From: an uncultured virus (IMG/VR IMGVR_UViG_3300029889_000001)
Lineage: Duplodnaviria > Heunggongvirae > Uroviricota > Caudoviricetes
Length of the DNA stretch: 20,000 nucleotides
Reading direction: 5' to 3' (one strand)
Virus record (IMG/VR): IMGVR_UViG_3300029889_000001
Span: 53,459-73,458 of that record
In this document: positions 1,746 through 18,737 of the stretch, one piece after another
Position numbering within the stretch: position 1 is the stretch's first letter
Layout of the letters: each line of letters begins with the position of its first letter
The notes under the pieces: generated by a model
The model's input: only the letters and a program-made list of their open reading frames with translations
Database searches by the model: none
What the model was told of the DNA's origin: nothing
Translations under genes and position numbers: made by a program

Positions 1746-1914
1746 CTTCTCTCTCCCATCCGCAAGTGTTACAGGTTAAAACCACGTCCATGCACGATCC
1801 GCACGGCGCACTCTTAAAGCATGTGCAGTTCTCCGATGGAGGATAGATCATCCTTCCTTCGCATCCATCTATAGGGCACGGATCGCCTTCGTCTACCTCA
1901 GAACTCATCTTCAT
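1711..1914 (-). CDS. Small Cys-rich (zinc-finger-like) hypothetical protein
   Basis: 67 aa with CPIDGC, CTC, CGSC and CNTC. Overlaps both neighbours in the same operon. Confidence 0.65.
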   Translation of the reverse strand: MKMSSEVDEGDPCPIDGCEGRMIYPPSENCTCFKSAPCGSCMDVVLTCNTCGWEREDASEETDTQGL

Positions 1915-3283
1915 CTCCCCATCCTTCCCCTTCGCTGTCCTCTTCCTGCTCCTCGTCAGGAACCGCGTCCAAAGGCTTGCTCACCTTGAGCGTTGCCTTC
2001 GTTACCTTGTCTGCGGTGTCCTGACAGGCTTGGTCAAGAAACGCCCTCTTTTTTGTTCCCAAATAGCTATTGAGCTTGGTTGAAGAGATAACCAGTTTTC
2101 CCATCCATGCCGTATCGCCTGTATTACCGAAAGCGTAATCTTCTACGATCAAATCCGCAATCGGCATTATCGGCCTGACTCTTCCTTCCTTACATTTTGG
2201 GCATAGTCCATTTTCAGGAACATAGTCGAATTGTTTTCCGCAGTCACACCTAGTTGCGATACTTTCTCCTGTTGTCCTGAAAAGAGGATACACGCTAGAT
2301 TCACTCTCGACGGGTCCGAAGACGTAAGCCTTCCCGTTGTAGTCTTTGAGAACTACTCTCTTTCCTGTCCCGTTAACATAATCGCGCAGCGTCTTGCTGT
2401 TGACCTTTGAAAAAGCACTGTACCAAAGCAGATAGCGGAGCCTATCAACTGGCTCTAGTTGCATTTGAGGGTTCCATTGGCTAATGGGGCACTCACGGTT
2501 GGAAAGAAGAGGGCAGTAGACACATTGAGCGCCTGAGATTGCTTCAATTTCCTTGCCGCCGTCGAAACTCACATGGATGGTTTTCTGGCGCTCTCTCGCA
2601 GCCTTCGCTTCCTCAATCAACTTAGGAACGTCTTGGCGCGTGTATTCCACCGTCCTAGTCATATTTTTGTAACGGACGAAAGTCAAACGGAATACAACAG
2701 TCTCCACCCATGTAAAGTGTTGATAAATAAAAAGCGCGTACATCTTAGCCTGCATTGTTTCGCTTGGCTCAAAAGCGCGAGCGTGTGATTTGAAGTCATC
2801 CACTAGAATCTTGTTTTCTGTGCGGAAGACGTACACGCCGTCAAGTGTTCCCTGATAGCATGGAGGCAACCCACTGTCTCCGCTTATCCCTTCTACCTCC
2901 GTTGCCACATCGGTAGGCTGAAAATGCTCATCAAGAGCCATGCCTAGTTCTGTAGCAAATAAATGTTCGTGGTCAACTACAAATCCATCGCGGAGTCCTG
3001 ATAGAATCCTAGCCGCTTGTGGCCCTGCGCCATGACTGAAAGATTCAAAGGCATCCAAGTCCATCCCTACCGATTTACGGGCGCAGTGGGAGAGATAAAG
3101 CGCCATTGTCTTGTGGATTTCAGTTCCACGCGCCGCCTCAAGTCCTCCCGGTGGTTTATTTCCTTTAATGAATACTTCCGTATAGAAACGAGGACAGGCC
3201 ATCGTTTCCTGAGTGGACTGCCTGAGTGGTGGGATAGGACTCTTCTGAATTTGAACCAACTCGGTAGATTTTCTCTTAGGCAT
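1898..3283 (-). CDS. PD-(D/E)xK exonuclease, Cas4/RecB/AddB-like, with extra C-terminal Zn ribbon and acidic tail
   Basis: N-terminal CPR, then RGTEIH, GTLD, DFKS, QAKMYA (QxxxY), and C-terminal CVYCP-x6-C (1+3 Cys Fe-S staple pattern). Additional CDC...CPKC motif. Confidence 0.88.
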   Translation of the reverse strand: MPKRKSTELVQIQKSPIPPLRQSTQETMACPRFYTEVFIKGNKPPGGLEAARGTEIHKTMALYLSHCARKSVGMDLDAFESFSHGAGPQAARILSGLRDGFVVDHEHLFATELGMALDEHFQPTDVATEVEGISGDSGLPPCYQGTLDGVYVFRTENKILVDDFKSHARAFEPSETMQAKMYALFIYQHFTWVETVVFRLTFVRYKNMTRTVEYTRQDVPKLIEEAKAARERQKTIHVSFDGGKEIEAISGAQCVYCPLLSNRECPISQWNPQMQLEPVDRLRYLLWYSAFSKVNSKTLRDYVNGTGKRVVLKDYNGKAYVFGPVESESSVYPLFRTTGESIATRCDCGKQFDYVPENGLCPKCKEGRVRPIMPIADLIVEDYAFGNTGDTAWMGKLVISSTKLNSYLGTKKRAFLDQACQDTADKVTKATLKVSKPLDAVPDEEQEEDSEGEGWGDEDEF

Positions 3284-3833
3284 TCAGTCCTTTCTGTGTG
3301 CAGTCAAAAACCATTAACCTGTCGATGTAACTCTTTGCCGCGTCGTATCCGTGAGCATGAATTACATGGTCGTACTGCGTTGTCTCGTATCCCGGCCACG
3401 CTTCTTCCTTCGGAAAGATTTCAGATGCATCAGCTTTTATTTCGGAATCCGTCCACTCAAGATGGATGACACTCTTTCTCCATCCAATCTTAATCCTTCC
3501 CTTCGGAGTTGCCACGATAAACCAAGGGTAAAAAGCGCAGCATCCACGACTACAATAGCCGTTAGGAATCTCTTCCATATATAGAGCGTGACGACCAAAA
3601 CATTCAAGAATCTTCGCCTTGTCGCAAGCGGCTTTCTCGTGCGTCTTTGGGTTGGCTCCTGTCTCTCCCTTCAGGAGAGCGTCGTCAATCGAATCTCGCG
3701 CTCTATCAATCGCAAACTTTTCATCTTCGGTAAACTCCCGCTCTATGCCTTGTATCTGAATACGAATCGCATAGCCGCCCATGTGCTGCACACTAGTTAC
3801 GTTTTTGAATTCCTGCTCGACTGCTATAGTCAC
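3276..3833 (-). CDS. Hypothetical phage protein
   Basis: 185-aa ORF, coupled to neighbours (GTGA overlap at 3830-3833). Contains YCSRGCC and IKIGWRKSVI. Confidence 0.75.
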   Translation of the reverse strand: MTIAVEQEFKNVTSVQHMGGYAIRIQIQGIEREFTEDEKFAIDRARDSIDDALLKGETGANPKTHEKAACDKAKILECFGRHALYMEEIPNGYCSRGCCAFYPWFIVATPKGRIKIGWRKSVIHLEWTDSEIKADASEIFPKEEAWPGYETTQYDHVIHAHGYDAAKSYIDRLMVFDCTQKGLNA

Positions 3834-4045
3834 GCAACCCTCCTAATCTTCTTTATCTCGCCCCATGAAATCGTAGCCAGTCTCCGGTCCTTGTGCGACA
3901 CGGAAAACGCATCCACACGCTCACGTATGTTTCCATAGGTGCGTGACGTGCAGAGCAATTCCTCTCCAGCCCATAGGCTCTTGAGCGCAAGAGTTAGTAT
4001 ATCCTTCGGCTTACGAAATGTACGCCGCTTCTTTACGAATACCAT
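3830..4045 (-). CDS. Small basic hypothetical protein
   Basis: 71 aa, strong SD (AGGAGG) upstream of ATG 4045. Confidence 0.7.
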   Translation of the reverse strand: MVFVKKRRTFRKPKDILTLALKSLWAGEELLCTSRTYGNIRERVDAFSVSHKDRRLATISWGEIKKIRRVA

Positions 4046-4056
4046 GCTGGTACCTC

Positions 4057-4248
4057 CTAAAATAGTCCTAATCTGGCAAACTCACGTCGGGTAAATTCCG
4101 CCGTCTTCGGGTCCAACTTCGCCATCAACTTGTGACGGTTGTTCGATTGCTCTATCTTTTCGTTAAGGATACGTGCCTCACCTATCCTTCTCAAGTCTTC
4201 AACCGTTTTGATGGCACCGCTCTTGCCTTTATTCTTTCCTCTCTTCAT
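4057..4248 (-). CDS. Small basic hypothetical protein
   Basis: 63 aa. ATGA overlap with the PurA-like stop; GGAGG SD inside the upstream gene. Confidence 0.65.
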   Translation of the reverse strand: MKRGKNKGKSGAIKTVEDLRRIGEARILNEKIEQSNNRHKLMAKLDPKTAEFTRREFARLGLF

Positions 4249-5366
4249 GCCGTTACCTCCATATTGATTGTCCTGTGCGCCGCTGTCGGGCCTCTCCCTT
4301 GCATAACAACAGGAGCGAGTTCACTGACCCGATCAATAAACACTCGTTCCTGCCATCCTAAGCGGGGTAGGTAGTCGAGATGACTCAAAGCCAATACATC
4401 CACCCCGCCAACAATGCTTAGTGCTTGTTTAGCCAAAGTGAAGTCAAAGCGTCCTACGCGGAACTTACCTTGGAATCCGTCGTTTCCATTGTGCGGCTCA
4501 GGAAGATCAAGAGTGTTATCTTCGGTCGGAAATGGTCCTACTCCGTGACGAGTGTAGTACGTTCTCAGGCATCCAATCCTCATTCTGTCCGTACAACCGA
4601 TCTCGTCAAGCAGCGTATCGGCGTTCTCAAAGGTAGTGTTCGTCCATGTGTTGTGCGGAGCAGTACCGTGCTTTTCGTCCAGCATTACTCCCTGCGCTCC
4701 CTCGAAAACCATGCACCTCGATTCGCCAATGATTGAACTGTCCTCCGGTACTAAACGAACAAATGCCTTCCAGCGATCATACCCAACCTTTATATCTTCA
4801 ATATTTAGATCAGAGGTAGCCTCTACTCCCATTTCTTTTTGAACAAGGTTTTTCTGAAATTTCAATTTCTCTCGCAGGTCCACCCAATCGTAAATATCCT
4901 CCGCGCAGAGCACATTATCGCGCCCGTATTTCAATTCAAACTCTCGCGCCACCCCAACTCCCATCCCACAACTTCCATGCCGTCCCGTACCACGCGCCGT
5001 CTCTCTAAGCCGGTTGAGACGCTTGTGAAAAGGTGTAATAACAACACATCTGGCGGATATGGTCAATCTTCTCCACCAGCCAGGAGTTTTCTTGGCTAAC
5101 TCATCCGCCTCGTTCAACATGGTAATTGGATCGATAAGCATAAAACGTGATAAATGCGTCCTAACTTGATCGTTCGCCATCATTCCAGAGCCGAACTGGG
5201 AAAAGGTATGATGTACGCCTTCGGGGGTAATCACGTTATGAGCGCATTGCGATCCACCCCCATGCCGCACGATTAAGTCCACTGGAAGGCTACGGCAGAG
5301 TGCATCCACCGTAGCCCCTTTGGACTCGTCGCCGAAACCTAACCCGGCTACAGAGATTGCTCTCAC
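4245..5366 (-). CDS. purA: Divergent adenylosuccinate synthetase-family (PurA-fold) ligase
   Basis: GFGDESKG (cf. GDEGKG), GGSQCAHN (cf. GGHNAGHT), GSCGMGVG, FEGAQG-x2-LD, TRHGVGPFPTE, SHLD, GRGP. 373 aa. Family call is firm; canonical activity is doubtful. Confidence 0.9.
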   Translation of the reverse strand: MRAISVAGLGFGDESKGATVDALCRSLPVDLIVRHGGGSQCAHNVITPEGVHHTFSQFGSGMMANDQVRTHLSRFMLIDPITMLNEADELAKKTPGWWRRLTISARCVVITPFHKRLNRLRETARGTGRHGSCGMGVGVAREFELKYGRDNVLCAEDIYDWVDLREKLKFQKNLVQKEMGVEATSDLNIEDIKVGYDRWKAFVRLVPEDSSIIGESRCMVFEGAQGVMLDEKHGTAPHNTWTNTTFENADTLLDEIGCTDRMRIGCLRTYYTRHGVGPFPTEDNTLDLPEPHNGNDGFQGKFRVGRFDFTLAKQALSIVGGVDVLALSHLDYLPRLGWQERVFIDRVSELAPVVMQGRGPTAAHRTINMEVTA

Positions 5367-6307
5367 AGCCTTGCCGCCTTCCCCGCTCCAGACGTAGCCA
5401 GTGAGTCAGTGGTAACATGCTTCATTGACTTGACTAGAGCCTTGGCTTCGCTATCTCCTACGCCGATAGCCACAAGGTCAGTGACCACCGACGCCGGAGT
5501 TGCCTTGGACTCATACAGGCCAATAGTCGAAGCAATCAACTCGCAAAGCAGATTTGGATGCTGGCTGGTTAGCACAGATTCCTCGCCAAACAGTCTGACG
5601 TACTGCTCACGAGCATGACGGTATCCACCATCCGGCCAGATCACGAAGATATTGAAGTTCCTGCGGGCCTCTTCGATGATCTCCGCGATAGGAATATCTT
5701 TTTCGATGGTATCGCCGAAGATCGCCTTCACTTCCTTCGCTTGAACATGGGTGAAGATTGGCTCATCGGCATACAGGAACATATAGCCCTTTTTCCCACG
5801 TTTCTCGACAGAATCAAGCACCATCTTCCGCGCTGCCGCGTAGAGCAGCAGATCGTAAGACTCACCATCATTGCCGCCTCCAAGACAGACCAGATAGATG
5901 TTGCGAATGTGATCGTCTACGCGGTTGTCACTCTCGAAGTCTGAAAGCTGAACACAGTTGGACCCCGCATAGTTGTAGTCATCATTCGCCGCAACCGCAA
6001 CTTGCGGATCAGTCAGGTACTTGTTGAGCAGTTCCATCAGGTTAGGCAAACGCTTCTGCGCGTCCACTGCTCGCTCATAGTTCGAGCCTGTCACGTCAAA
6101 GCAAACTAGTACAGGGTTGGATTGTGGATGCTCTGTCGAGTCACGCGCTTCGAGTTTTCCGAAAGGCTTGCTATTGATCCTCAGCGGGTCAAGGTTCGTG
6201 TGAACTGACGTTGCTGTTTTGGTATAGGCAAAATCGGCTACGCCGGTTGCCTTACGAGTGGTTGCTGACGAATGATATGCACCGCTATCCCAGGCTCCCC
6301 CGCCCAT
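5363..6307 (-). CDS. von Willebrand factor A (vWA) domain protein
   Basis: MIDAS-like DVTGS after a hydrophobic strand (VLVCF), GGGNDGESY, FLYADE. N-terminus MGGGAW. SD AAGGAG; GTGA-coupled to the PurA-like gene. Confidence 0.85.
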   Translation of the reverse strand: MGGGAWDSGAYHSSATTRKATGVADFAYTKTATSVHTNLDPLRINSKPFGKLEARDSTEHPQSNPVLVCFDVTGSNYERAVDAQKRLPNLMELLNKYLTDPQVAVAANDDYNYAGSNCVQLSDFESDNRVDDHIRNIYLVCLGGGNDGESYDLLLYAAARKMVLDSVEKRGKKGYMFLYADEPIFTHVQAKEVKAIFGDTIEKDIPIAEIIEEARRNFNIFVIWPDGGYRHAREQYVRLFGEESVLTSQHPNLLCELIASTIGLYESKATPASVVTDLVAIGVGDSEAKALVKSMKHVTTDSLATSGAGKAARL

Positions 6308-6324
6308 CGTTTGTCTCCTTTTCT

Positions 6325-7374
6325 TTACGGCAAGTTAAATTCAACCCACTTAGGGGAGCCGTACCCCTTAGCAGCAGCTTGCTTCCAATCCTCAAGAACA
6401 TCACCGGCTTTCTGGTAACGCTTATCTGGATTTTCATCAAGACACTTCGATAGAACTTTTCCTAACTCCGGCAGCCACAAGGTTCCGCACAGATATGTCA
6501 TTAACCGCGCTGCCATGTAGATGTCGGATGGTGGCCCAATGTACTTCTTTGAAAGCAATTCTGGAGCATAGTGATCTTGCCACGCAGGAACCCACGAAGA
6601 AAGTCTCGTCCTCTGGGTATAGTCAACACTATAGCACCAATCCACGAGCCTGATCGAATGTTTTCTTGAGTCTTTTGTTATCGTGTTTCCGTCATTGTCT
6701 GGATAAAATAAAACGTGAGGCGGAAGGATGGCTCCATGAATGATCTTGAAATGATGAACCCAGGTAAGAAGAGTTAGGATTCTCTTAAACATCCACACTC
6801 CAGTCTTCTTCTCTACTGTGTTGTCTCCAAACTTTGCATGAACTTCCTGAGCCGTCACGAACCCAGGGAAGCGAGTAATAACATTCGCCTCTCGCTTCCA
6901 CAGTCCCTCTACCCAAAAGTTGCCTACCAACTCAGGAACACCGTCTCGGACAGGACCATCAATCTTTGCCAGAATCTTGAGCGCATTGACTTCTGCGCGT
7001 AGAAGATCATTGTCGTCGTGAGAGCGAGCAACCTTTACCAGAATCTTTCCGCCTTCAACCGTGTAAAGGTCTGCTATGTCTCCTATATGCGGATGAGGCT
7101 TGGCTTTGTACTTGCCGATCTCCAGAGGGACACAGTGAGGTAAAGGTACTCTCTTGCCCCATATTCCTTTCCTCACTCTCTCATCGGCTATTTGCTTGAG
7201 TTCGTTGAGTTTTTGAAAAGCCTTCTTTGCGATAGGCTCCGTAGGATTGTGATCTGGATGGCAAGCACGAGCAAGTTTACGAAAGACTATTGCTGGATCG
7301 TCGCCAGAACCAAACACATCCTCTGGGCAGCAGGCTCCGTCTAGCTTGTCGTAGATGAGTTGTAGTTCGCTCAC
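6325..7374 (-). CDS. J-domain-like (HPD) N-terminus fused to an atypical Ser/Thr-kinase fold (probable pseudokinase)
   Basis: FRKLARACHPDHN...AFQKL J-like segment. Kinase landmarks LVKVA, alphaC E, IIHGAILPPHV (HRD position = HGA), LVDWC (DFG position), YAPE, SDIY, CLDENPDKR. Confidence 0.85.
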   Translation of the reverse strand: MSELQLIYDKLDGACCPEDVFGSGDDPAIVFRKLARACHPDHNPTEPIAKKAFQKLNELKQIADERVRKGIWGKRVPLPHCVPLEIGKYKAKPHPHIGDIADLYTVEGGKILVKVARSHDDNDLLRAEVNALKILAKIDGPVRDGVPELVGNFWVEGLWKREANVITRFPGFVTAQEVHAKFGDNTVEKKTGVWMFKRILTLLTWVHHFKIIHGAILPPHVLFYPDNDGNTITKDSRKHSIRLVDWCYSVDYTQRTRLSSWVPAWQDHYAPELLSKKYIGPPSDIYMAARLMTYLCGTLWLPELGKVLSKCLDENPDKRYQKAGDVLEDWKQAAAKGYGSPKWVEFNLP

Positions 7375-7673
7375 TCAGAAGTCTCCGTTCCCTCTACCTT
7401 CGGTTCCTCAATCAAAGGCTCAATCATGTCGAGTCCTACCAGAATAGCCTTGAGCGTGGCACGAAGACTCTCAACCTCACTCTTACGTTGGTTATTGCGG
7501 TGAATCTGATCGAAGGCTTTGACGATATTGAAGGTCGTTCCGGTTTGAATCTTACGGTCGCTTGAGTAGTACCCTTGCTGTGAACCTACTGTTCGACCTG
7601 CTAGGTAGTCAATCTCTCGAAAAGTCGCCTCAACGAGAAAATTCCCGTCTCCTATAGTTCCGATGATTTTCAT
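7371..7673 (-). CDS. Hypothetical protein, first gene of the kinase-vWA-PurA unit
   Basis: 100 aa, SD GGGAGAGGG, GTGA-coupled to the kinase gene. Confidence 0.7.
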   Translation of the reverse strand: MKIIGTIGDGNFLVEATFREIDYLAGRTVGSQQGYYSSDRKIQTGTTFNIVKAFDQIHRNNQRKSEVESLRATLKAILVGLDMIEPLIEEPKVEGTETSE

Positions 7674-7796
7674 TGTCCCTCTCCCAATGTGTTGATGCGC
7701 GGCGCTCGGATGCTGAGACTTCGCCCGGACGCGACCCGATGTGCCTTAGAGGGACACGCCGCGCACTCTCGACAACTCCCCTAGCTGCCGAAAGGT
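7674..7796 (-). ncRNA. Putative structured cis-regulatory RNA (three-way junction with anti-RBS pairing)
   Basis: Perfect 9-bp stems 7757-7765/7696-7704 and 7748-7756/7674-7682, the latter covering the RBS. Inner hairpin UCGGGU(C)GC...GCAUCCGA. GC-rich intergenic spacer in an otherwise gap-free arm. Confidence 0.5.
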
Positions 7797-8978
7797 CTAA
7801 AATTCCAAGTTCAACGTCTTCGGTCGCCCTGGTTCCGCTTGCTGTGCCGGTTTCTCGTCCTGCGCGGGCTTGGTTTCTTGTGTTTCCTGTTGCGGCTCAG
7901 GCTTCTCCTCTGGCGCTGAGTCGATCTTCTTTGGCCGTCCACGACCGCGCTTCACTTCCGTTTCCTGCGGCGTCTCGGTCTTTGCTTGCTCAGTCTTGAC
8001 CTCTGCTTGCGATGCTTGCTGTGTTGCTTGCTCCGCTGGCTTCTCAGTTGCCTTCGTTTCCGTCTTGGCTACTGTCTGTCCTGTCGGCGCTAGGCGTCCA
8101 CGTAGGTACTCAAGCAACTCCTTCGCCCGTCCCATGTATGAGTTCTTGAGAAGACGCTTCTCTGTCTCGTTCTTGCCGAGTTGAGTAAACAGAGATTCAA
8201 TCTCCTTGTCAAATGGAGAACCGAATACCTCTTCAATCGTCCTGACGCCCTTCTTAATCTCCTCACAGAGAGCTTTCAGGGTGACAAGGTGGTCGATCTC
8301 CAGTTCCTTTGGCGAAGTGACTCCTACCGCGTTCATGATCTGCCACTCGCTCACGCCCAGCTTCGTCAGGTACTCCATAGCCGCGTCGATGCGCTGTGAA
8401 TGGCTTACAGCTTGTCCTACGGCGGTCAGCTTCGCTTGTTGGTAGGCTGGGTCCCAAAGAGCCATCGGAACGCCGCCTTTGAGAACTGCATCGCGGTAAG
8501 CAATGCTCAACGCAGCCTTTCCGGTCGTTAGGATCATATCGGCATTGAACTTCCGGCCTTCTTTGTCTGTGATCCGGCGAGGAACCTCTTTGGCGTTCTT
8601 GTTATTAAACTCGTAGTCAAGAAACACGCCTTGCGCGGTAATAGTGTCGTCTGTGCTTCCAAAAATCCTTGTTGCTGTGGACGTGTTTCTCCATGTTGGA
8701 GCCACAATCTCAGCAAAGCGAACTCCTGGTCCGACAATCTGCTTTCCTGCGCGGGGAAGCGTATAAAACATGCTCAGTGCAACAGGCTGAGAATGGGTTG
8801 CGTAGGACATGAGTTGCTTTTGAAAAGTGGTAATGTTTCTCCTGTTCGCTGGAAGGTTTGCTGTGGCAACCATGGCCGCATATTCCGACTGTGTGATAAT
8901 CGCTAATGTCGAAGGAGATGAGTCAATAATCTCCAAATTTGATTCATTCTCTGGTGGAAGGTATTCCTCGTTCGCCAT
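7797..8978 (-). CDS. Putative phage recombination / single-strand-annealing protein with low-complexity C-terminal tail
   Basis: Start at ATG 8978 with SD AAGGAG (not 9014). FYTLPR...IVGPGVRFAE...WRN core resembles proteins I recall next to phage Cas4-like exonucleases. Q/E/K/P/T-rich tail with AT-hook-like KRGRGRPKK. Function inferred from context. Confidence 0.55.
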   Translation of the reverse strand: MANEEYLPPENESNLEIIDSSPSTLAIITQSEYAAMVATANLPANRRNITTFQKQLMSYATHSQPVALSMFYTLPRAGKQIVGPGVRFAEIVAPTWRNTSTATRIFGSTDDTITAQGVFLDYEFNNKNAKEVPRRITDKEGRKFNADMILTTGKAALSIAYRDAVLKGGVPMALWDPAYQQAKLTAVGQAVSHSQRIDAAMEYLTKLGVSEWQIMNAVGVTSPKELEIDHLVTLKALCEEIKKGVRTIEEVFGSPFDKEIESLFTQLGKNETEKRLLKNSYMGRAKELLEYLRGRLAPTGQTVAKTETKATEKPAEQATQQASQAEVKTEQAKTETPQETEVKRGRGRPKKIDSAPEEKPEPQQETQETKPAQDEKPAQQAEPGRPKTLNLEF

Positions 8979-9023
8979 GCTGCTCCTTTTCCGGTTCTCC
9001 CGGTGTGGTTTCAAAATGTTCCA

Positions 9024-9293
9024 CTACTCCTGCTCTAATTGCCTTAATTTCTCACTTGCGGCCCATCCTCTTGGATTGCCGGGTTTGTCTTCCCGAATAG
9101 TCGATGGACCGCCTAAAGGCATATCAATAATCGCCGTTCTCGTACACCGCTTTCTCCCAAAATATAGGTAAACGGCTACGCTTGCGTCATCATCCATCCC
9201 CATAGGCCCAAAGATTTTGAAATCCCAAGGTGCTCTGTCAAACTGCTTCATCAGATTGGGATGTTGGAACCTCAAGTGATCTAATAGTGTCAT
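9024..9293 (-). CDS. Hypothetical protein
   Basis: 89-aa ORF in the co-oriented array; purine-rich SD upstream. Confidence 0.55.
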   Translation of the reverse strand: MTLLDHLRFQHPNLMKQFDRAPWDFKIFGPMGMDDDASVAVYLYFGRKRCTRTAIIDMPLGGPSTIREDKPGNPRGWAASEKLRQLEQE

Positions 9294-9609
9294 TCTCTTT
9301 CTCTCCCGTCGTTTCCTGTTCCTTGGCTGCTGGTACGGTCCCTTCCCTAGTCAGCGGCGGCTTTAATTCCAAAGTCGATTCCCGATTTGCCACGGTTGTG
9401 TCAGGCGTCATCAGGTTGCTCACCGTCTGCATCATGTGTCCTATCCCGCATAAATGCTTTCCCTCTTTCATTGCCTTTTGAGGACACTCATCCCAGTGGT
9501 ACACATGAACGCCAGAGGATTCAGGAAGGACTACATACCAATTATTTACCTCTCGGCGCTGGGCTGTGCAACCGGGGAAATCACACGTAGGTGCTGATCC
9601 TAATCCCAT
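9238..9609 (-). CDS. Hypothetical Zn-binding protein
   Basis: CDFPGC...NNW...HLCGIGH pattern; SD GAGG. Confidence 0.7.
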   Translation of the reverse strand: MGLGSAPTCDFPGCTAQRREVNNWYVVLPESSGVHVYHWDECPQKAMKEGKHLCGIGHMMQTVSNLMTPDTTVANRESTLELKPPLTREGTVPAAKEQETTGEKENDTIRSLEVPTSQSDEAV

Positions 9610-11473: not shown

Positions 11474-11640
11474 TGTCCGGGGTAGCTCCCTTGGATGCCC
11501 TCTATCCGAACAGGTCTGGGGGCCGGTTGCCCAGACTGGCCCCAACCACCTTCAAGATAGAACGGCGCTGTTCGGATACCTTTTCAACGGCTGCGGAATT
11601 TTGGCTATGAGGATTTCCCTGTCATTAGGGAAAAGGGGGA
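11474..11640 (+). ncRNA. Putative structured 5' leader / small RNA upstream of the replication initiator
   Basis: 5' hairpin 11474-11497. Perfect 11-bp stem 11503-11513/11568-11578 enclosing two mutually exclusive hairpins. Hairpin 11614-11620/11627-11633 next to the SD. Confidence 0.5.
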
Positions 11641-11645
11641 ATATT

Positions 11646-12440
11646 TTGTCCGCAAAATGGCAACAATGGATGCCGCTCCATATTGACCGCTTCTTAGGTA
11701 GTCCTGCTGTTCAAGCCATGTCTCCATCCGCCCAGATGGGATACCTTCGCCTTTTGATGGCTTCATGGCAAAGCGAAGATTGTACGATTTCTTCCGATCC
11801 TCTCGATTTAGCAGAAACTAGCGGACTTGGCGATGATCTTTGGGAAAAATGCGGCGCTCGTATTTTGCGTAAATTTTTTCCTGTAAGCGGCAATGGAAGA
11901 TTGCGGAATAGCGTCTGCTATGAAGAATGGAGAGAAGCAAAAAGAATATTTGAAGCAAGAAAGGCTGCGGCAATAAAAACCACAGAAATACGGTCACCGC
12001 GTTTATTTTCTACAGTCACCGAAGACAATCAAGACGGTGACCATACGGTGACTAATGGCACACCGTCACGCTCTGCCAACACAATAACAGGTACATTAAC
12101 AAATACAAAAAAACAAACAGCATCTACAGGCGAAGAAATTGATGCTCTTTATAAAGCCTACCCCCGTCACACCGCTCCAAAAGCAGCGCGTAAGGCAATC
12201 GAAAAGGCATTAAAAGAAAAACCTTTTGATGTACTCCTTCCCATCGTACAGGCTTACGCTGCTCAGACGGCAAAGAGAATTGCTGATGGAAAACTAGAAA
12301 AGGAATTTATTCCTCACCCGGCTACTTGGTTTAATCAAGGGCGATACGAAGATGACGATTTGAAGCCGCCGCCGCAATACGACATTGTGGAAGTTTCGCC
12401 ACAGGAGTTCTGGAAAGACACAGGGATTCATGTCTCTTAG
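11646..12440 (+). CDS. Phage replication initiator / replisome organizer (DUF1376/YdaU-like N-terminus)
   Basis: WMPLHIDRFLGS...MS...GYLRLLMASW N-domain, low-complexity linker, C-domain LYKAYPR...KAARKA...FIPHPATWFNQGRYED. Probable TTG start 11646 after AGGGGGA. Confidence 0.85.
   Translation: MSAKWQQWMPLHIDRFLGSPAVQAMSPSAQMGYLRLLMASWQSEDCTISSDPLDLAETSGLGDDLWEKCGARILRKFFPVSGNGRLRNSVCYEEWREAKRIFEARKAAAIKTTEIRSPRLFSTVTEDNQDGDHTVTNGTPSRSANTITGTLTNTKKQTASTGEEIDALYKAYPRHTAPKAARKAIEKALKEKPFDVLLPIVQAYAAQTAKRIADGKLEKEFIPHPATWFNQGRYEDDDLKPPPQYDIVEVSPQEFWKDTGIHVS
11989..12120. repeat. Candidate replication origin: iteron-like GTCACCG repeats plus A-rich tract inside the initiator gene
   Basis: GTCACCG at 11993 and 12015; inverted CGGTGAC at 12035 and 12046; A-rich segment ~12078-12120. 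Confidence 0.65.
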
Positions 12441-14307
12441 TCAGTTTACTCAATCCGAAATCGAGCAGTATTACCGCATCCGGCTTGACCGTGCAGGATT
12501 TCATCACGTCAAGGGAAACGAGTGGAGGTCGCGGTGTATCCTGCATGGCGGGGATAATCCTAATTCGCTTTGGGTAGATATTGCGACTGGAGGGTTTTGT
12601 TGTTTTTCATGCCAAGAAAAAGGCGGAGGGATTTATTCTTTTGAACAGGTACTTCTCCGCCATGAAAGCAATTCAGGTCAAGCGCCGGAGGCAGGGAAGG
12701 TCACTGAGTCGATTCATACGGTGCTAGGAACACCGTTCGTCAGCAGGGTTTACCAAGAAGACATTCCGAATAAGGCAAAAGGAACCGGATGGGATCGCAA
12801 GCAAGCGCAGGATTACTACGTTTATCAAGATGAACTAGGAAGGGAATTGTATCGCGTTTGGAGGTTCGTAGACCGCAGCGGGAATAAGGTAACGCCGCCA
12901 GATCACGCCTGTGCTTGCCAAAGGAATCCTGACGCCGAATGTGAGGCTGGTTGCGTGGATGGTAGGGTATGGGGTGCCAAGGATGTTCGGAGAGTCCTGT
13001 ACAGGCTTCCAGACATTATCCAGTCTAGTTTCTGCTTTGTGGTAGAAGGCGAGAAAGACGTAAATAACCTGAGCCGTGCGTTGGCGCTCTACATCTCACG
13101 CACAAACGGTTTTAAGATTGCAAACCTACTTCTTGACCGCGTAGGTGTTACAACGAACATGGGAGGTTCGTCAGGATGGAAGCTGGAATACGAATACGGA
13201 AAATACTTCACCGGGAAAGTGGTAGTTAAACTCGGCGATAACGATGCTCCTGGTCGCCTACATGACGCCGCTGTATGCAAAGACGTTGCCAAGTATGCTC
13301 TGCAACTCTACACGCTAGAATTACCTGTTGGAGAGAAAGAGGACATTTCAGATTATCTCAAAGATCACACGATAGAAGATTTGATTAAACTGATGGAGAC
13401 TAGCTTAAAGAAGTGGGAGGTTGCGAAACCAAAGGAAACAAAAGTAGGAGACAGGAACGAACCTCGTGTGGTGTTAGTTCATCCTGTCGAGCTAACAGGA
13501 AGAGAAACAAAGCCACAGGTTGATTGGCTAGTAGATGGGTTGATTGAGCGTGGGCAACGCGGCTTGGTTGTTGCTCCGCCGAAGGTTGGGAAGTCGCTTC
13601 TATTCCTCGATATGTGTGTGTCCCTTGCATCGCAAACTAGATTCCTTGGTGTAGAGCCTTCCAATCATCCAATCAGGACGGCTATTATCAGCAGAGAGGA
13701 TGGGCCAGAGTTAGTCAAGAGAAGACTTACACAACTTGCGGCAGGTAGAGGTTTGAGTCTTGAGCAAGTAAATCCGTACATCCTTGTGAATACCGTGAAA
13801 CAGTCTTCCAGTTTTCATATTGACTCACAAAAAGAACTTGAGGAGATGGCGCAATGGTTAAAGGCGGGAAGAGTAGAATTCTGTGTAGTCGATGTGTTGA
13901 ATAGGCTGCATTTCCAAAATGAAAATTCTACTGACGATATGACCAAAGTGATGATAAAATTTGATGAACTGGCAGCATTGTCTGGTTCTCAGATATGTGT
14001 TATTCATCACCTTGGGCGTACAGGAAACTCGCGTGGTTCTACAACGATTGAGGGTTGGGCAGACTTCATCTGTAAACTCGAACAAGACCCCATAGATGAA
14101 TCTTTGAAGACAGTGACCATAAAAACCAAAGCTCAGGGGTTAATAGCTCCACGCTCAGTGAAGTATTGGCAATCGGACGACAAAAATCAATCCCGGATTC
14201 TATTGGTAGAGAAAATCGAGAGGCATAATAATGGCAATGGAAATGGTAACGGGCGCGTTAAATCTTCAACTGAGGTTCAACCGCGAATGCCTTACAACAA
14301 CGATTAG
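12430..14307 (+). CDS. Primase-helicase fusion (CHC2 Zn finger + TOPRIM + RepA/AAA_25-type helicase)
   Basis: CILH...CFSC Zn finger; VEGEKD, GDNDAPG, EDISDY TOPRIM motifs; Walker A APPKVGKS, Walker B CVVD, IHH, SRGS. ATG 12430 overlaps the initiator stop. Confidence 0.9.
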   Translation: MSLSQFTQSEIEQYYRIRLDRAGFHHVKGNEWRSRCILHGGDNPNSLWVDIATGGFCCFSCQEKGGGIYSFEQVLLRHESNSGQAPEAGKVTESIHTVLGTPFVSRVYQEDIPNKAKGTGWDRKQAQDYYVYQDELGRELYRVWRFVDRSGNKVTPPDHACACQRNPDAECEAGCVDGRVWGAKDVRRVLYRLPDIIQSSFCFVVEGEKDVNNLSRALALYISRTNGFKIANLLLDRVGVTTNMGGSSGWKLEYEYGKYFTGKVVVKLGDNDAPGRLHDAAVCKDVAKYALQLYTLELPVGEKEDISDYLKDHTIEDLIKLMETSLKKWEVAKPKETKVGDRNEPRVVLVHPVELTGRETKPQVDWLVDGLIERGQRGLVVAPPKVGKSLLFLDMCVSLASQTRFLGVEPSNHPIRTAIISREDGPELVKRRLTQLAAGRGLSLEQVNPYILVNTVKQSSSFHIDSQKELEEMAQWLKAGRVEFCVVDVLNRLHFQNENSTDDMTKVMIKFDELAALSGSQICVIHHLGRTGNSRGSTTIEGWADFICKLEQDPIDESLKTVTIKTKAQGLIAPRSVKYWQSDDKNQSRILLVEKIERHNNGNGNGNGRVKSSTEVQPRMPYNND

Positions 14308-14316
14308 GAGCGCACA

Positions 14317-14523
14317 TTGAGACATTCCGCACTATGCACAGACGAAGAAGGAATCAACGAGTTTAATGCACGTATGGACCGAGAGGATTTAGAAGCACTT
14401 TCTGTAGCCTGTCCGCTCAAATCCTGCGGTGCTGAGGTAGGGGAGCATTGCTGCACGGATTCGGGACAGCGGAGAATACGTCACTGCCGCAGACTTTTAG
14501 AAGCGAGGAAACAGAATGGGTGA
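14317..14523 (+). CDS. Small Zn-finger protein
   Basis: VACP-x2-SCGAEVGEHC...RHCRR; SD AGGAG before TTG. Confidence 0.65.
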   Translation: MRHSALCTDEEGINEFNARMDREDLEALSVACPLKSCGAEVGEHCCTDSGQRRIRHCRRLLEARKQNG

Positions 14524-15265
14524 AAAAACTGGTATAAGTTGGACGACGCACACGATGAATCCGTGGCATGGTTGTACTGAGGTATCTCCTGGCTGCGACA
14601 ATTGCTATGCCCGTGTCCTTGACGCACGTTGGGGCGGCGATCCGCACTGGGGAAAGGGCGTATCCCGTAAGGTAATGAGTGATGCGTATTGGAGGCAACC
14701 TTTGCGGTGGAACGCTAACGCCGAAAAGGAAGGAGTCAAGCATAAAGTATTCTGTGCATCGATGGCCGATGTGATGGACGACGAAGCTCCTGCTGGTCAG
14801 CGGGAAAGGTTATGGGAGTTGATTGACAACACTCCTAATCTTATTTGGCAACTGCTAACCAAGCGACCACAGCGGTACATGCGCTACCTGCCGAAAGAGT
14901 TCAAGTATTGTAATGTGTGGCTTGGCATGAGTGCTGAGAACCAAAAGAATTTCGAGATTCGTGCCGATCATTTAATTGACGCGAGTATTGATCGCGGGAC
15001 GGTTGCATTTATCAGCTACGAACCTGCTCTTGGACCCCTAACTTTAAGCACTCGTCCAAACTGGCAACTTGATTGGTTGATTTGTGGTGCGGAAAGCGGT
15101 GCAAATCGTAGACCCATGGAGAAATATTGGGTTGAAAACATTCAAAAGGAATGTGCAGAGCGTGGAACGAAGTTTTTCATGAAGCAGTTCGGGGCACGAA
15201 CTCCAGAAGAAGGTGCAAGGTTAATCCCAGCCGAATTACTAATCCGCGAGTTTCCAGGGGAGTAA
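14516..15265 (+). CDS. DUF5131 / phage Gp37-Gp68 family protein (three-Cys, radical-SAM-like)
   Basis: TGISWT...NPWHGCTEVSPGCDNCYA, VFCASMAD, LLTKRP, NVWLGMSAENQ, SYEPALG, WLICGAESG, FFMKQ. Confidence 0.92.
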   Translation: MGEKTGISWTTHTMNPWHGCTEVSPGCDNCYARVLDARWGGDPHWGKGVSRKVMSDAYWRQPLRWNANAEKEGVKHKVFCASMADVMDDEAPAGQRERLWELIDNTPNLIWQLLTKRPQRYMRYLPKEFKYCNVWLGMSAENQKNFEIRADHLIDASIDRGTVAFISYEPALGPLTLSTRPNWQLDWLICGAESGANRRPMEKYWVENIQKECAERGTKFFMKQFGARTPEEGARLIPAELLIREFPGE

Positions 15266-16629: not shown

Positions 16630-17016
16630 ATGAAGCGTGGCGGCTACATCAAGCGTAAACCACCTAAGCCTCCTGTTGAGAGGATACCTCTAGCAATTCC
16701 GAGGCCATGTGAAGTGAAAAAAGAGATTGAAGTTGAGCATACCTTCCGAGATGGGAGAACGAAAATCAATCAGAATTGCAAGGAAGGCCGTGATCTTTAC
16801 CAGCAGCGTAAGCGCATCGCATGGGAAAAACAAGGGAAACTGTGCTCTATTTGCCACCTTCACTTAAACTGGGCAGACTCTACAGTAGACCATATCCGAG
16901 TCCGTGGCATGGGAGCCGGGTCTATAGACGACCGCCAGGAAAACATTGCGGCTGCACACGCCACTTGCAACGCTGCTCGTGGAAGTAGAACTCACGGATT
17001 TTATGGGGTTGCATGA
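16630..17016 (+). CDS. HNH endonuclease
   Basis: CSIC...TVDHI...ENIAAAHATCNAARG. Start ATG 16630 just after the upstream stop; ATGA-coupled to the MTase. Confidence 0.85.
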   Translation: MKRGGYIKRKPPKPPVERIPLAIPRPCEVKKEIEVEHTFRDGRTKINQNCKEGRDLYQQRKRIAWEKQGKLCSICHLHLNWADSTVDHIRVRGMGAGSIDDRQENIAAAHATCNAARGSRTHGFYGVA

Positions 17017-18737
17017 GATACCTTTCGGTTTGCTCAGGATTAGGTGGTGCGGAGTTAGCATTTACTTCTCTAGGATGGGAGTGTGCGGCTGTATGCGAAA
17101 TAGATTCCTCTGCTTGCGCTGTGCTTAAAGCAAGATTTCCAGACGTACCTAACTTGGGAGATTTTACAAAGATCGGAGTTGAAGATGTCGGAACAATCGA
17201 CCTTTTGGTCGGAGGAACACCTTGTCAAGATTTCTCAGTCGCCGGTCTCAGAGCAGGAATGGACGGAGATCGTGGTCAACTCACAATCGAGTTCGCTAGG
17301 GTTGCTGAGAGACTCAGGCCCAGATGGTTGGTCTGGGAGAACGTTCCCGGTGTGCTGTCGGTTGACGGAGGACGAGCGTTTGGAACCTTTCTCCGAATCT
17401 TGGGGCAATTCGGGTATGGGTTCGCTTACAGAATTCTTGACGCTCAATACTGCGGAGTTCCACAGCGAAGGCGTAGGGTCTTCGTTGTCGGATATCTTGG
17501 AGACTGGCGTCGTGCCGCAGCGGTACTATTTGAGCGCCAAAGCCTGTCAGGGTATCCTGCGCCGCGCAGAGAAGCGGGGAAAGGCGTTGCCGGATGCCTT
17601 AAAGGTGGCTCTGGAGAGCGTGGCTGGCCCGATCCCTCTGATGGAAACGGAGGAGGACTCATTGAAGTCGCTGGAACTCTGGGAGGAGGAAGCGGAGAAC
17701 GAGGATGGCAGAACCATGACGGAGCAGGGGCATTTGTTCCTGTAGGCCCAACTGGAAGCGGTAAGGATACATTTCCGTGTCTCTGTGCAAACTACGGAGA
17801 TAAGTGGGGGTTAGGCGATCAGGAAGCATTCAAAGGGGATCATCACATACTAACATCCAAGCCTATTTATGCAACCGATGGACAGGTTAACGCTGCTTTT
17901 GCGGAAGATCAAGCCTTGGCTCTTAACGCCACACATGAGCAACCGTATATAGTCGGCACTATGGCTTGCAATACAGGACCAAACGGGCACGACGCAGGGA
18001 ACTTCCAAAGTAATCAAGGGGTAGACTCTGGATATGTTATTCCAGTCGCCTTCACTCAAAACTCAAGAGATGAAGTTAGAGTAATAGGCGATGAAGGAGA
18101 GGTTTCAGGATCGCTCTCAGCGGAAACAGGAACACATCAGACCACTTATCTTGCCTATCGTACAAATGCGGCTGGACAGGTTGATCCTCAAGGAGATAAA
18201 TCCGATGCACTGACATCAAATACCGATCCTTGCACACAAATCCTTGCCTTTGACACGACACAAGTAACCAGCAAAACAAACCGTTCCAATCCGCAAGTAG
18301 GCGATCCATGTCATACACTCGCCAAAGGTTCGGATGCGCCAACGATTGCGTTTAGGACGAATCAAACATCTGCTCAAGGTCCAATTCATTCCGAAGAAGT
18401 AACGGATAGTTTGGCGCAAGATCATCCTCCCGCTGTTGCCTTTGCGTTACAGGGTGGGGGGAAGACTTCACAGAATTCGCAAGGAAGTACAATCAAAGAA
18501 GACTGCTCATTTACCTTAAACGTAACTGATGTGCATGGCATATCCACTGGGATGCAAGTACGCCGTCTTACTCCTACAGAGTGTGAGCGGTTACAAGGCA
18601 TACCTGACGGTTGGACAAAGATTACGGAGAAGTCATCAGATGGACCGCGATACCGAATGATCGGAAACGGCTTCGCTGTTCCTTGCGTGGCGTGGATAGG
18701 AAAAAGGATTCAAATGGTAGAGGATATGCTCAAATGA
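17013..18737 (+). CDS. dcm: DNA (cytosine-5)-methyltransferase with greatly expanded variable region
   Basis: Motif I CSGLGG, II CEID, IV GGTPCQDFS, VI ENVPG, VIII QRRRRVF, IX RRLTPTECERLQG, X IGNGFAVP. Confidence 0.95.
   Translation: MRYLSVCSGLGGAELAFTSLGWECAAVCEIDSSACAVLKARFPDVPNLGDFTKIGVEDVGTIDLLVGGTPCQDFSVAGLRAGMDGDRGQLTIEFARVAERLRPRWLVWENVPGVLSVDGGRAFGTFLRILGQFGYGFAYRILDAQYCGVPQRRRRVFVVGYLGDWRRAAAVLFERQSLSGYPAPRREAGKGVAGCLKGGSGERGWPDPSDGNGGGLIEVAGTLGGGSGERGWQNHDGAGAFVPVGPTGSGKDTFPCLCANYGDKWGLGDQEAFKGDHHILTSKPIYATDGQVNAAFAEDQALALNATHEQPYIVGTMACNTGPNGHDAGNFQSNQGVDSGYVIPVAFTQNSRDEVRVIGDEGEVSGSLSAETGTHQTTYLAYRTNAAGQVDPQGDKSDALTSNTDPCTQILAFDTTQVTSKTNRSNPQVGDPCHTLAKGSDAPTIAFRTNQTSAQGPIHSEEVTDSLAQDHPPAVAFALQGGGKTSQNSQGSTIKEDCSFTLNVTDVHGISTGMQVRRLTPTECERLQGIPDGWTKITEKSSDGPRYRMIGNGFAVPCVAWIGKRIQMVEDMLK
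17185..17745 (+). CDS. Nested +1-frame gene inside the C5-MTase (M.EcoHK31I beta-polypeptide-like)
   Basis: 186-codon same-strand ORF with its own GGAG SD 6 nt before ATG 17185. Contains SLSDILE...PQRYYLSAKACQGILRRAEKRGKALP. Confidence 0.65.
   Translation: MSEQSTFWSEEHLVKISQSPVSEQEWTEIVVNSQSSSLGLLRDSGPDGWSGRTFPVCCRLTEDERLEPFSESWGNSGMGSLTEFLTLNTAEFHSEGVGSSLSDILETGVVPQRYYLSAKACQGILRRAEKRGKALPDALKVALESVAGPIPLMETEEDSLKSLELWEEEAENEDGRTMTEQGHLFL

Follow-up and report, generated by a model that had tools for sequence, protein, structure and literature searches.

A three-gene module of phages and bacteria that pairs a divergent PurA-family enzyme with a vWA-fold protein and a J-domain pseudokinase

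The window analysed here, 20,000 nucleotides long, is the last 20 kb of the 73,458-bp IMG/VR virus record IMGVR_UViG_3300029889_000001, whose completeness is estimated at 72%; a near-identical 136-kb contig (L005/G206 in our numbering) is rated 100% complete. Its minus strand carries a module of three neighbouring genes (Table 1) that code for a protein with a J domain and a Hanks-type kinase fold, a protein with a von Willebrand factor A (vWA) fold and a relative of the adenylosuccinate synthetase PurA. We rate this module as a new kind of system because it does not show the defining features of PurA, PurZ, the TerY-P triad (as defined below) or the NARP systems. The reading of its function that we favour, with a probability of about 0.5, is that the PurA-like protein would be a ligase driven by guanosine triphosphate (GTP) that acts on a non-canonical substrate pair, is assisted by two non-catalytic partners and is tied to stress involving nicotinamide adenine dinucleotide (NAD) and ADP-ribose.

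An initial annotation of the window proposed that the three proteins act together and that this be checked by gene-neighbourhood co-occurrence. The comparison of loci bears this out: homologues of the vWA, PurA-like and kinase proteins recur together in phages and bacteria, and their co-occurrence is far beyond chance. The phage set of 83 loci was seeded on the vWA gene and comprises 80 kept IMG/VR loci together with Mycobacterium phage Rizal, Vibrio phage phiTY18 and Rhizobium phage RHph_TM3_3_6. The PurA-like gene adjoins the vWA gene in 79 of these loci and the kinase gene is found in 61. The predominant gene order is kinase-vWA-PurA (52 loci), followed by vWA-PurA (19), vWA-PurA-kinase (6), kinase-vWA (3) and PurA-vWA (2); one locus has the vWA gene alone. 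Four loci have no PurA-like gene: L018 and L057 stop ~1 kb or less past the vWA gene, and in L071 and L060 it is missing from a downstream sequence of at least 2.8 kb. No other conserved partner was found in phages, the largest further neighbour cluster covering 5 of the 83 loci (not counting the families of the module itself and one antisense shadow open reading frame (ORF) that overlies it). The absence of a phosphatase, remarked upon in the initial annotation, also held, as no ORF of the record with a length of at least 70 amino acids had a phosphatase Pfam match. No defence-island context was seen, PADLOC giving no match for the vWA and PurA-like proteins and weak matches to the PD-T4-6, MkoA and mad6 models for the kinase-like protein only.

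The profile scan of uncultured viral contigs from which the 80 loci were kept matched at least 587 stretches, of which at least 448 encode a relative. In cultured phages (tblastn), PurA-like, vWA-like and kinase genes were found in 235, 219 and 202 records, respectively. Mycobacterium phages contribute 201 records to each of the three tallies; those of Rhizobium (10) and Vibrio (6) appear in the vWA and PurA-like tallies only, and RHph_TM3_3_6 and phiTY18 carry the vWA and PurA-like genes as a pair. Phage Rizal has the gene order of the window, with kinase gp250, vWA protein gp251, a small gp252 and PurA-like gp253.

The module is interrupted in several phages. One related phage of 134 kb (L015:6968-11756, on the contig of L007) has its vWA gene split in two parts coding for residues 1-282 and 278-314, which lie ~2.6 kb apart, and foreign DNA is found between these parts and ahead of the PurA-like gene. 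Inserts of 0.7-4 kb separate the vWA and PurA-like genes in L012, L017, L020, L021 and L053. The L012 insert has, on the opposite strand (L012:7942-8601, minus), a gene for a protein of Endonuclease VII type, and the L020 insert codes for a 432-amino acid protein and a PspA/IM30-like protein. Homing or mobile genes appear to enter the vWA/PurA-like junction preferentially.

In bacteria, a profile scan (12-row alignment) of a one-genome-per-species collection matched at least 599 stretches, of which at least 576 encode a relative. The best 80 loci belong to Actinomycetota, with the exception of one Anaerolineae metagenome-assembled genome. All 80 have the vWA gene, 79 the adjacent PurA-like gene and 62 the kinase gene, so that the mention of similar bacterial triads in the initial annotation was correct. 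The bacterial neighbours checked by Pfam are ordinary metabolic genes.

The enzyme of the module is clearly related to PurA. It matches PF00709 at 4e-51, and its best match to a PDB sequence is the bacterial PurA 3hid (E 1.7e-26). It falls below all NCBIfam cut-offs of the PurA equivalogs, with 127.0 bits relative to 395.55 for TIGR00184 and 137.4 relative to 402 for NF002223. All of five complete actinobacterial chromosomes tested code for a canonical PurA (546-564 bits) besides the module copy (at most 125 bits), which identifies the module enzyme as a paralogue with a different job. The earlier view that it is not the housekeeping PurA is well founded on both counts.

An alignment with E. 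coli PurA (K-12 record), whose numbering is used below, defined the residues that separate the two enzymes; it included 77 copies of the module enzyme from phages and 76 from bacteria. In the E. coli enzyme, D13, K16, H41 and Q224 are the residues that transfer the phosphoryl group to the O6 of inosine monophosphate (IMP), with D13, H41 and Q224 acting on purine N1/O6; D333 provides guanine specificity, N38, T129 and R143 bind the IMP phosphate, and T300, T301 and R303 bind aspartate. The module enzyme has in common with PurA (EC 6.3.4.4; PF00709, TIGR00184; structures 3HID and 1ADE) its fold, its family and residues G12, D13, K16, G17, H41, Q224 and D333. The P-loop residues G12, D13, K16 and G17 are found in 77/77 phage and 75/76 bacterial copies, and the core residues D13, K16, H41, Q224 and D333, all present in the window protein, in 76-77 of 77 and 75-76 of 76, respectively. 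G274 is likewise kept (75-77 of 76-77 copies), and the C-terminal guanine-binding S/G-x-G-P motif is mostly kept.

The substrate-binding positions are different. The module enzyme differs from PurA by the changes N38Q, T128S, T129C, V273H and K331H, the loss of R143 and a shorter aspartate loop, a signature that the phage and bacterial copies have in common. Position 273 is an invariant histidine (77/77 phage and 76/76 bacterial copies), N38 is replaced by Gln (76/77 and 76/76) and T128-T129 by Ser-Cys (65/77 and 74/76). R143 is not conserved and K331 is changed to His or Cys. In the aspartate loop T300 is replaced by an aromatic residue (Trp, Phe or Tyr in 70/77 phage copies; W or Y in 76/76 bacterial ones) and T301 by Gln (69/77 and 76/76), while the arginine run 303-306 is reduced to a single Arg and every copy has a loop shortened by one residue. 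The resulting family form is [W/F/Y]-Q-G-x-[F/W/L]-R, as compared to TTGRRRR of PurA. With the residue roles given above, the phosphoryl-transfer engine is intact and the aspartate and IMP-phosphate sites are rebuilt family-wide. The initial annotation had noted altered active sites in both the kinase-like and the PurA-like proteins, and this extends to their whole families (62 kinase members, see below; 77 and 76 PurA-like copies).

The sequence also sets the enzyme apart from PurZ (succino-amino-deoxyadenylate synthase, NF038379), another phage-borne member of the PurA family with a changed specificity. The two have phrog_1211 in common, a family labelled “2-aminooxy adenylosuccinate synthetase” that the window protein matches at 1.8e-60, a label repeated in RefSeq Bixzunavirus genomes. 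However, the score against the PurZ model is 30.1 bits for a cut-off of 300. PDB includes PurZ structures, and none was found among the 22 PDB sequence matches of the protein. PurZ carries Ser at the position of PurA Asp13 (S14 of phiVC8 PurZ), according to the available part of a recent preprint (bioRxiv 10.1101/2025.10.22.683976), whereas Asp13 is kept in 77/77 copies of the module family. Families of the Z-cluster partners DatZ, MazZ and DpoZ (PF13023, HD_3; PF03819, MazG; PF00476, DNA_pol_A) are found neither in the 73-kb record nor in its complete 136-kb relative, and a Pfam scan of the record's ORFs with a length of at least 70 amino acids gave no such match either. Partners of the vWA or pseudokinase type are not mentioned for PurZ in the accessible text of the same preprint, in which “vWA” has 0 occurrences and “kinase” 1. 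The module enzyme is thus neither housekeeping PurA nor PurZ but forms a third branch of their family, with sharp limits.

The middle protein of the module had no match to Pfam (including its VWA models), NCBIfam or PADLOC; its sole family-library match is phrog_2971 (5.5e-49), whose function is not assigned. Its AlphaFold model has a high confidence (predicted local distance difference test, pLDDT, of 94.6), and the Foldseek PDB matches listed are all vWA or integrin I-like proteins with a probability of 1.00 (best E 1.3e-5). It is thus predicted to have a vWA (Rossmann-like) fold. In the ESM Atlas it falls among unnamed clusters (0.97), the nearest named one being vWA at 0.82-0.83, a value of lead level only. 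The family is large, with 648 relatives in a 90% database and 1225 representatives at 50% identity. Across 81 aligned members D71 and D181 are invariant and T73, G74 and S75 are conserved in at least 90% of the sequences, which delineates a near-complete, putative metal-ion site of the type known as metal ion-dependent adhesion site (MIDAS). The amino terminus is equally constrained: M1 is invariant, G2 is present in at least 90% of the members, and 80 of the 81 start with MG, usually as MG(G/S)(G/S)xW. At the opposite end (5363-5390), most members finish, after a low-confidence tail, with G-x-x-R-L (GKAARL in the window protein); this conserved RL tail might serve for docking. With the PurA-like and vWA proteins both entered as alignments, a complex prediction scored 0.00 relative to a mark of 0.32, which gives no verdict and is not used as evidence.

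The third protein combines a J domain with a degenerate kinase. It has a borderline match to a DnaJ fragment (E 3e-6; 27.7 bits for a cut-off of 27.8), a weak one to Pkinase and a match to phrog_3043 “kinase” at 1.7e-31. Its AlphaFold model (pLDDT 94.4) was best matched by Foldseek to the DnaJ-PKA chimera 4wb7, followed by Hanks kinases of PknB type. J proteins stimulate Hsp70/DnaK through their HPD motif. Among the 62 family members the three residues are conserved in 51 (H), 49 (P) and 50 (D), with a gap in nine members. With this motif and the J fold of the model, whose predicted helices span residues 3-13, 27-38 and 47-69, the protein is assigned to the J-domain family. The kinase moiety has kept the β3 Lys and the αC Glu, each in 58/62 members. 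Its catalytic-loop Asp is replaced by Ala in 53/62 members (Asp in 1/62) and the Mg-binding Asn of the same loop by His in 51/62 (Asn in 8/62). The window protein has DWC in place of DFG, a position where Asp is found in 45/62 members, and the glycine loop of the family is an acidic G-D-x-[A/C]-D-x-Y. Judged from these residues, the family is a predicted pseudokinase with a J domain, conserved and not in the course of decay.

The strongest functional lead, which the initial annotation did not have, is a link to NAD that comes from the neighbouring genes. The most recurrent neighbour cluster of the 80 bacterial loci consists of proteins with Nudix and NrtR_WHD domains (Pfam-confirmed for L110 and L096). 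Such NrtR-like genes, identified with a jackhmmer profile, lie on the module strand in 73 loci; they immediately precede the module in 48 loci, and in 33 they follow shortly after the PurA-like gene. NrtR-type regulators sense ADP-ribose, a product of NAD+ breakdown, according to the accessible text of Iyer et al. (2022, PMC9503650). In the phage loci NAMPT is the most recurrent extra neighbour (5 loci), with NrtR, an NMNAT-like protein and NADAR among the others. NAMPT-family matches were found in 8 of 49 module-bearing viral records, 7 of them above the cut-off, and for five of these seven genes the distance to the module is ~8 kb or less, the genomes measuring 131-417 kb. It is unlikely that this closeness is due to chance (order of 1e-4 by a rough estimate). 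From the NrtR-like neighbours in bacteria and NAMPT beside the module in some phages we infer a role during NAD+ breakdown.

Four IMG/VR jumbo-phage contigs (L044, L050, L059 and L065; 145-417 kb where long) have the order vWA-PurA-kinase and an NrtR-like gene of their own, an arrangement that looks like a bacterial-style NAD regulon carried by a phage. In L044, L050 and L065 NAMPT is also close to the module. Genes of RNA-repair type are found near the module in phiTY18 (L002), L021, L026, L072 and L079; the set comprises Ro60/TROVE, RtcB with an intein-like Hint domain, a T4-type RNA ligase, Thg1 and RlaP. A NADAR protein is also encoded near the module in phiTY18.

In the favoured mechanism, the PurA-like protein would still be an active GTP-dependent ligase that activates a carbonyl of the 6-oxopurine type, the activated group then being displaced by an amine. 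Its substrates would be another form of nucleotide and another amine than IMP and aspartate. The pseudokinase and the vWA protein would be non-catalytic partners of the enzyme, acting as scaffold, as regulator or in the presentation of substrate; the J domain would recruit the host DnaK and the MIDAS site would clamp an acidic peptide. The reaction would probably be called on during NAD+ destruction and serve nucleotide homeostasis, possibly allowing the infected cell to stay productive for the phage despite an NAD-depleting immunity. Another reaction, the re-ligation of ADP-ribose and nicotinamide by phosphorylation of the anomeric hydroxyl and attack of nicotinamide, was considered and set aside, the invariant D13, H41 and Q224 favouring a 6-oxopurine.

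Several observations weigh against this mechanism. The invariance of the same three residues argues for an electrophile that has remained a 6-oxopurine, and we know of no NAD-pathway intermediate of that type. As NAMPT is found in only 8 of the 49 module-bearing viral records, the other 41 having no match to its family, the NAD link is a minority feature in phages, and the auxiliary-gene regions of large phages are gene-dense. The phage of the window itself has no NAMPT, NMNAT-like or Nudix gene in its record or in the complete 136-kb relative, and no NAD gene was identified by Pfam in the 73-kb record. The bacterial NrtR-like count derives from the profile search, and the downstream type (L165:9247-9948) is without a Pfam match, which makes this subset less certain. 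Finally, among 201 genomes sampled from the phylum of one actinobacterial carrier, a vWA-like gene was found in the carrier itself only (E 1e-10). Its absence from the 200 other genomes means that the module is sporadic and not a core function.

Four other explanations, a variant of the first of them and the PurZ assignment, which fares worst, were weighed as well. The first is a nucleotide-to-protein ligation in which C6 of a purine nucleotide would be joined to a protein amine, the best candidate being the N-terminal glycine of the vWA protein, with the J-pseudokinase and DnaK handling the substrate. The near-invariant pairing of the vWA and PurA-like genes, the conserved MG start of the vWA family and the peptide-binding or chaperone-type nature of two of the three proteins agree with it. 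The replacement of the arginines for the aspartate carboxylate by aromatic or hydrophobic residues would also suit a peptide amine. However, no fused vWA-PurA form was found (the one longer vWA relative, of 594 amino acids, has no Pfam match and is without PF00709), an absence that is weak evidence, and the neighbourhood of NrtR and NAMPT is left unexplained by this ligation on its own. We regard it as unlikely. A variant would combine the GTP-activated C6 with the vWA N-terminal glycine, or with a client brought by the vWA protein, the J-pseudokinase and DnaK, in a protein-N6-adenylate-type adduct, used by bacteria under ADP-ribose/NAD stress and borrowed by large phages. It is a rather improbable proposal; if true, the adduct would be a post-translational modification without precedent.

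An ordinary auxiliary metabolic gene, by which the phage would boost synthesis of adenosine monophosphate with a PurA of its own, the neighbours being unrelated or regulatory, would account for the strong PF00709 match, the intact D13, K16, H41, Q224 and D333 and the database label “PurA-like adenylosuccinate synthetase” given to relatives. It is difficult to reconcile with scores of 127-137 bits relative to equivalog cut-offs of 395-402, with the replacement of the aspartate loop and IMP-phosphate ligands in 77 phage and 76 bacterial copies, with the canonical purA kept by the bacteria that carry the module (5/5) and with the tight vWA linkage across very different genomes. This makes it quite unlikely.

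The enzyme could also counter deaminase immunity by re-aminating IMP, deoxy-IMP (dIMP), inosine triphosphate (ITP) or deoxy-ITP (dITP) produced by deaminases of RADAR/Kongming type, thus restoring adenine nucleotides or removing a signal. The kept 6-oxopurine residues and the changed phosphate-end ligands N38, T129 and R143 would be compatible with a deoxy substrate or with a di- or triphosphate, and the gene is carried by phages. An immune signal based on dITP is the subject of a preprint (bioRxiv 10.1101/2024.12.20.629578). The loss of the aspartate site would demand another nitrogen donor, though, and the chromosomal copies beside NrtR-like genes in 73/80 loci point to NAD/ADP-ribose rather than to inosine stress. 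We consider such a role very doubtful.

A further explanation is a TerY-P-like stress or defence signalling triad with the PurA-like protein as effector. The TerY-P triad consists of the vWA protein TerY, a Ser/Thr kinase and a PP2C phosphatase. The module resembles it in that a vWA-fold protein is encoded next to a Hanks-type kinase fold, and the kinase-only PADLOC matches go in the same direction. In contrast, the module kinase appears dead, with HGA in the catalytic loop and the catalytic Asp missing in 61/62 members, and carries a J domain. The third member is of the PurA family. The window contains no phosphatase, no extra neighbour recurs in the 83 loci, the vWA protein has no Pfam VWA match, neither it nor the PurA-like protein is matched by PADLOC, and the bacterial neighbours checked by Pfam are metabolic. 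A TerY-P-like function is therefore highly improbable. Finally, a PurZ-type enzyme of a 2-aminoadenine (Z-genome) phage, to which the phrog_1211 label would point, is contradicted by the model score, the retained Asp13 and the absent Z-cluster partner families, and can practically be dismissed.

Two further groups of described systems bear comparison with the module. The NAD+ reconstitution systems NARP1, NARP2 and NARP3 (PMC13464706, available part) are likewise made of phage nucleotide enzymes thought to offset NAD+ destruction, and NAMPT, NMNAT-like and NrtR genes are neighbours of the module in some phages. However, no defining NARP enzyme, as far as the accessible text describes them, is found within the module. 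For NARP2 (NAMPT and NMNAT), PF04095, PF01467 and PF00293 gave no match in the record or its complete relative; Adps and Namat of NARP1 were not specifically searched. A full-text search found no literature joining NAD+ reconstitution with adenylosuccinate. The second group is formed by the NrtR- or WYL-regulated ADP-ribosylglycohydrolase systems, which include vWA “peptide-binding chaperones” (Iyer et al. 2022, PMC9503650, accessible text). They resemble the bacterial module loci in that their operons pair an NrtR-type ADP-ribose sensor with a vWA protein, but those systems, in the part of the article available, centre on ADP-ribosylglycohydrolase and phosphatases, and “PurA” and “pseudokinase” each have 0 occurrences in PMC9503650.

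No description of a kinase/vWA/PurA-like triad was found in full-text literature searches, whose scope leaves out most subscription journals. The triad is not described in the accessible parts of the PurZ association preprint, of a survey of NAD-ADP-ribose functions in viruses and of a paper on the NrtR regulon. Public phage annotations call its members “serine/threonine kinase”, “hypothetical protein” and “PurA-like adenylosuccinate synthetase”, or give the latter a PurZ-type label. The module is found in ~200 cultured Mycobacterium phages, at least 448 uncultured viral stretches and at least 576 bacterial stretches. PurZ is the precedent for a PurA homologue of phages in which a minor alteration is enough to change the chemistry of DNA; the product of the module might be a nucleotide or a protein modification of a new kind, or belong to a new route in NAD/ADP-ribose stress. 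Its presence in easily handled systems (Bixzunavirus on M. smegmatis; Streptomyces) makes it directly testable. The residue signature Q38, S128-C129, H273, [W/F/Y]300-Q301 and H331 allows a clean annotation of the enzyme, which matters because databases mislabel the genes for it as PurA or as a PurZ-type “2-aminooxy adenylosuccinate synthetase”.

The gene arrangement of the window is given in Table 1. The four co-oriented genes at 4245-7673 of the initial annotation, joined by GTGA overlaps or by a 17-nucleotide gap, were recovered exactly in coordinates and junctions. The sequence has a GTGA overlap at both the orf100/kinase and the vWA/PurA-like junctions. An additional ATGA overlap, absent from that first list, couples the PurA-like gene to a downstream 63-amino acid ORF, which implies that the leftward transcription unit runs on beyond the PurA-like gene. 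This ORF has a homologue in one of the 83 related loci.

Table 1. Features of the module and its borders in the window (positions counted from the first nucleotide of the window; residues of the encoded proteins are numbered as in the window unless E. coli is mentioned).
Feature	Positions	Strand	Remarks
63-amino acid ORF	4057..4248	minus	ATGA-coupled to PurA-like gene; not conserved with the module
PurA-family enzyme, 373 amino acids	4245..5366	minus	distinct PurA subfamily
Remodelled aspartate loop F298-Q299-G300-K301-F302-R303	4458..4475	minus	E. coli: T300-T301-G302-R303-R304-R305-R306
His274 replacing E. coli Val273	4545..4547	minus	subfamily-specific
P-loop G12-D13-E14-S15-K16-G17	5316..5333	minus	catalytic Asp13 and Lys16 kept
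vWA-fold protein, 314 amino acids	5363..6307	minus	phrog_2971 family
MIDAS-like motif D71-V-T73-G74-S75	6083..6097	minus	DxTxS variant of DxSxS
Conserved N-terminus MGGGAW	6290..6307	minus	family pattern M-G-[G/S]-[G/S]-x-W
17-nucleotide spacer with AAGGAG Shine-Dalgarno sequence	6308..6324	minus	kinase stop to vWA start
J-domain and Hanks-type pseudokinase, 349 amino acids	6325..7374	minus	
Degenerate catalytic loop HGAILPPH (residues 213-220)	6715..6738	minus	replaces HRDxKxxN
HPD tripeptide of the J domain (residues 39-41)	7252..7260	minus	
100-amino acid ORF (orf100)	7371..7673	minus	GTGA-coupled to kinase gene; lineage-specific
Intergenic leader, 123 nucleotides	7674..7796	minus	upstream of orf100; hairpins predicted

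Other elements of the initial annotation at the borders of the module did not hold. orf100, which had been counted as part of the cassette, lies outside the conserved module: it has no homologue in the 83 related loci and no Pfam, PHROG, NCBIfam or PADLOC match, and was also found in the near-identical contig L005. The leader upstream of it, described as structured, folds at -50.9 kcal/mol with a z of -1.73, and 10 of 200 shuffled sequences fold equally well. It has no Rfam match, nor was any Rfam family found in the region 3500-9500, and no sigma-70-like site is reported within it. A promoter and terminator scan gave no excess over shuffled sequences (3 relative to 4.3 and 7 relative to 4.8). 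The flanking gene thought to code for an annealing protein (7797-9014) matched only phrog_3657, whose function is not assigned, and has no PDB sequence match. A Cas4-like nuclease is indeed encoded nearby, as the 461-amino acid ORF 1898-3283 (phrog_69 exonuclease, weak TIGR00372) and not as the adjacent 185-amino acid ORF.

On the plus strand of the window, genes oriented rightward at 11601-15265 and 17013-18737 diverge from the module; they code for a DUF1376 protein, a 640-amino acid AAA_25 protein (DnaB/RepA-like), a DUF5131 protein (1e-63) and a C-5 cytosine DNA methylase. The region that immediately precedes the window on its left side (G000:C1:49124-53302) codes for a serine recombinase (Resolvase and Recombinase), RusA, a cold-shock-domain protein and a Fic/DOC protein, the recombinase hinting at a temperate or invertible element. 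The same phage has a second, unrelated vWA system (G000:C1:33257-36445; L010:15257-18445, plus), which is composed of an AAA-type ATPase (weak AAA_16), a 298-amino acid ORF and a DUF2201_N metallopeptidase and DUF2201 vWA-like protein.

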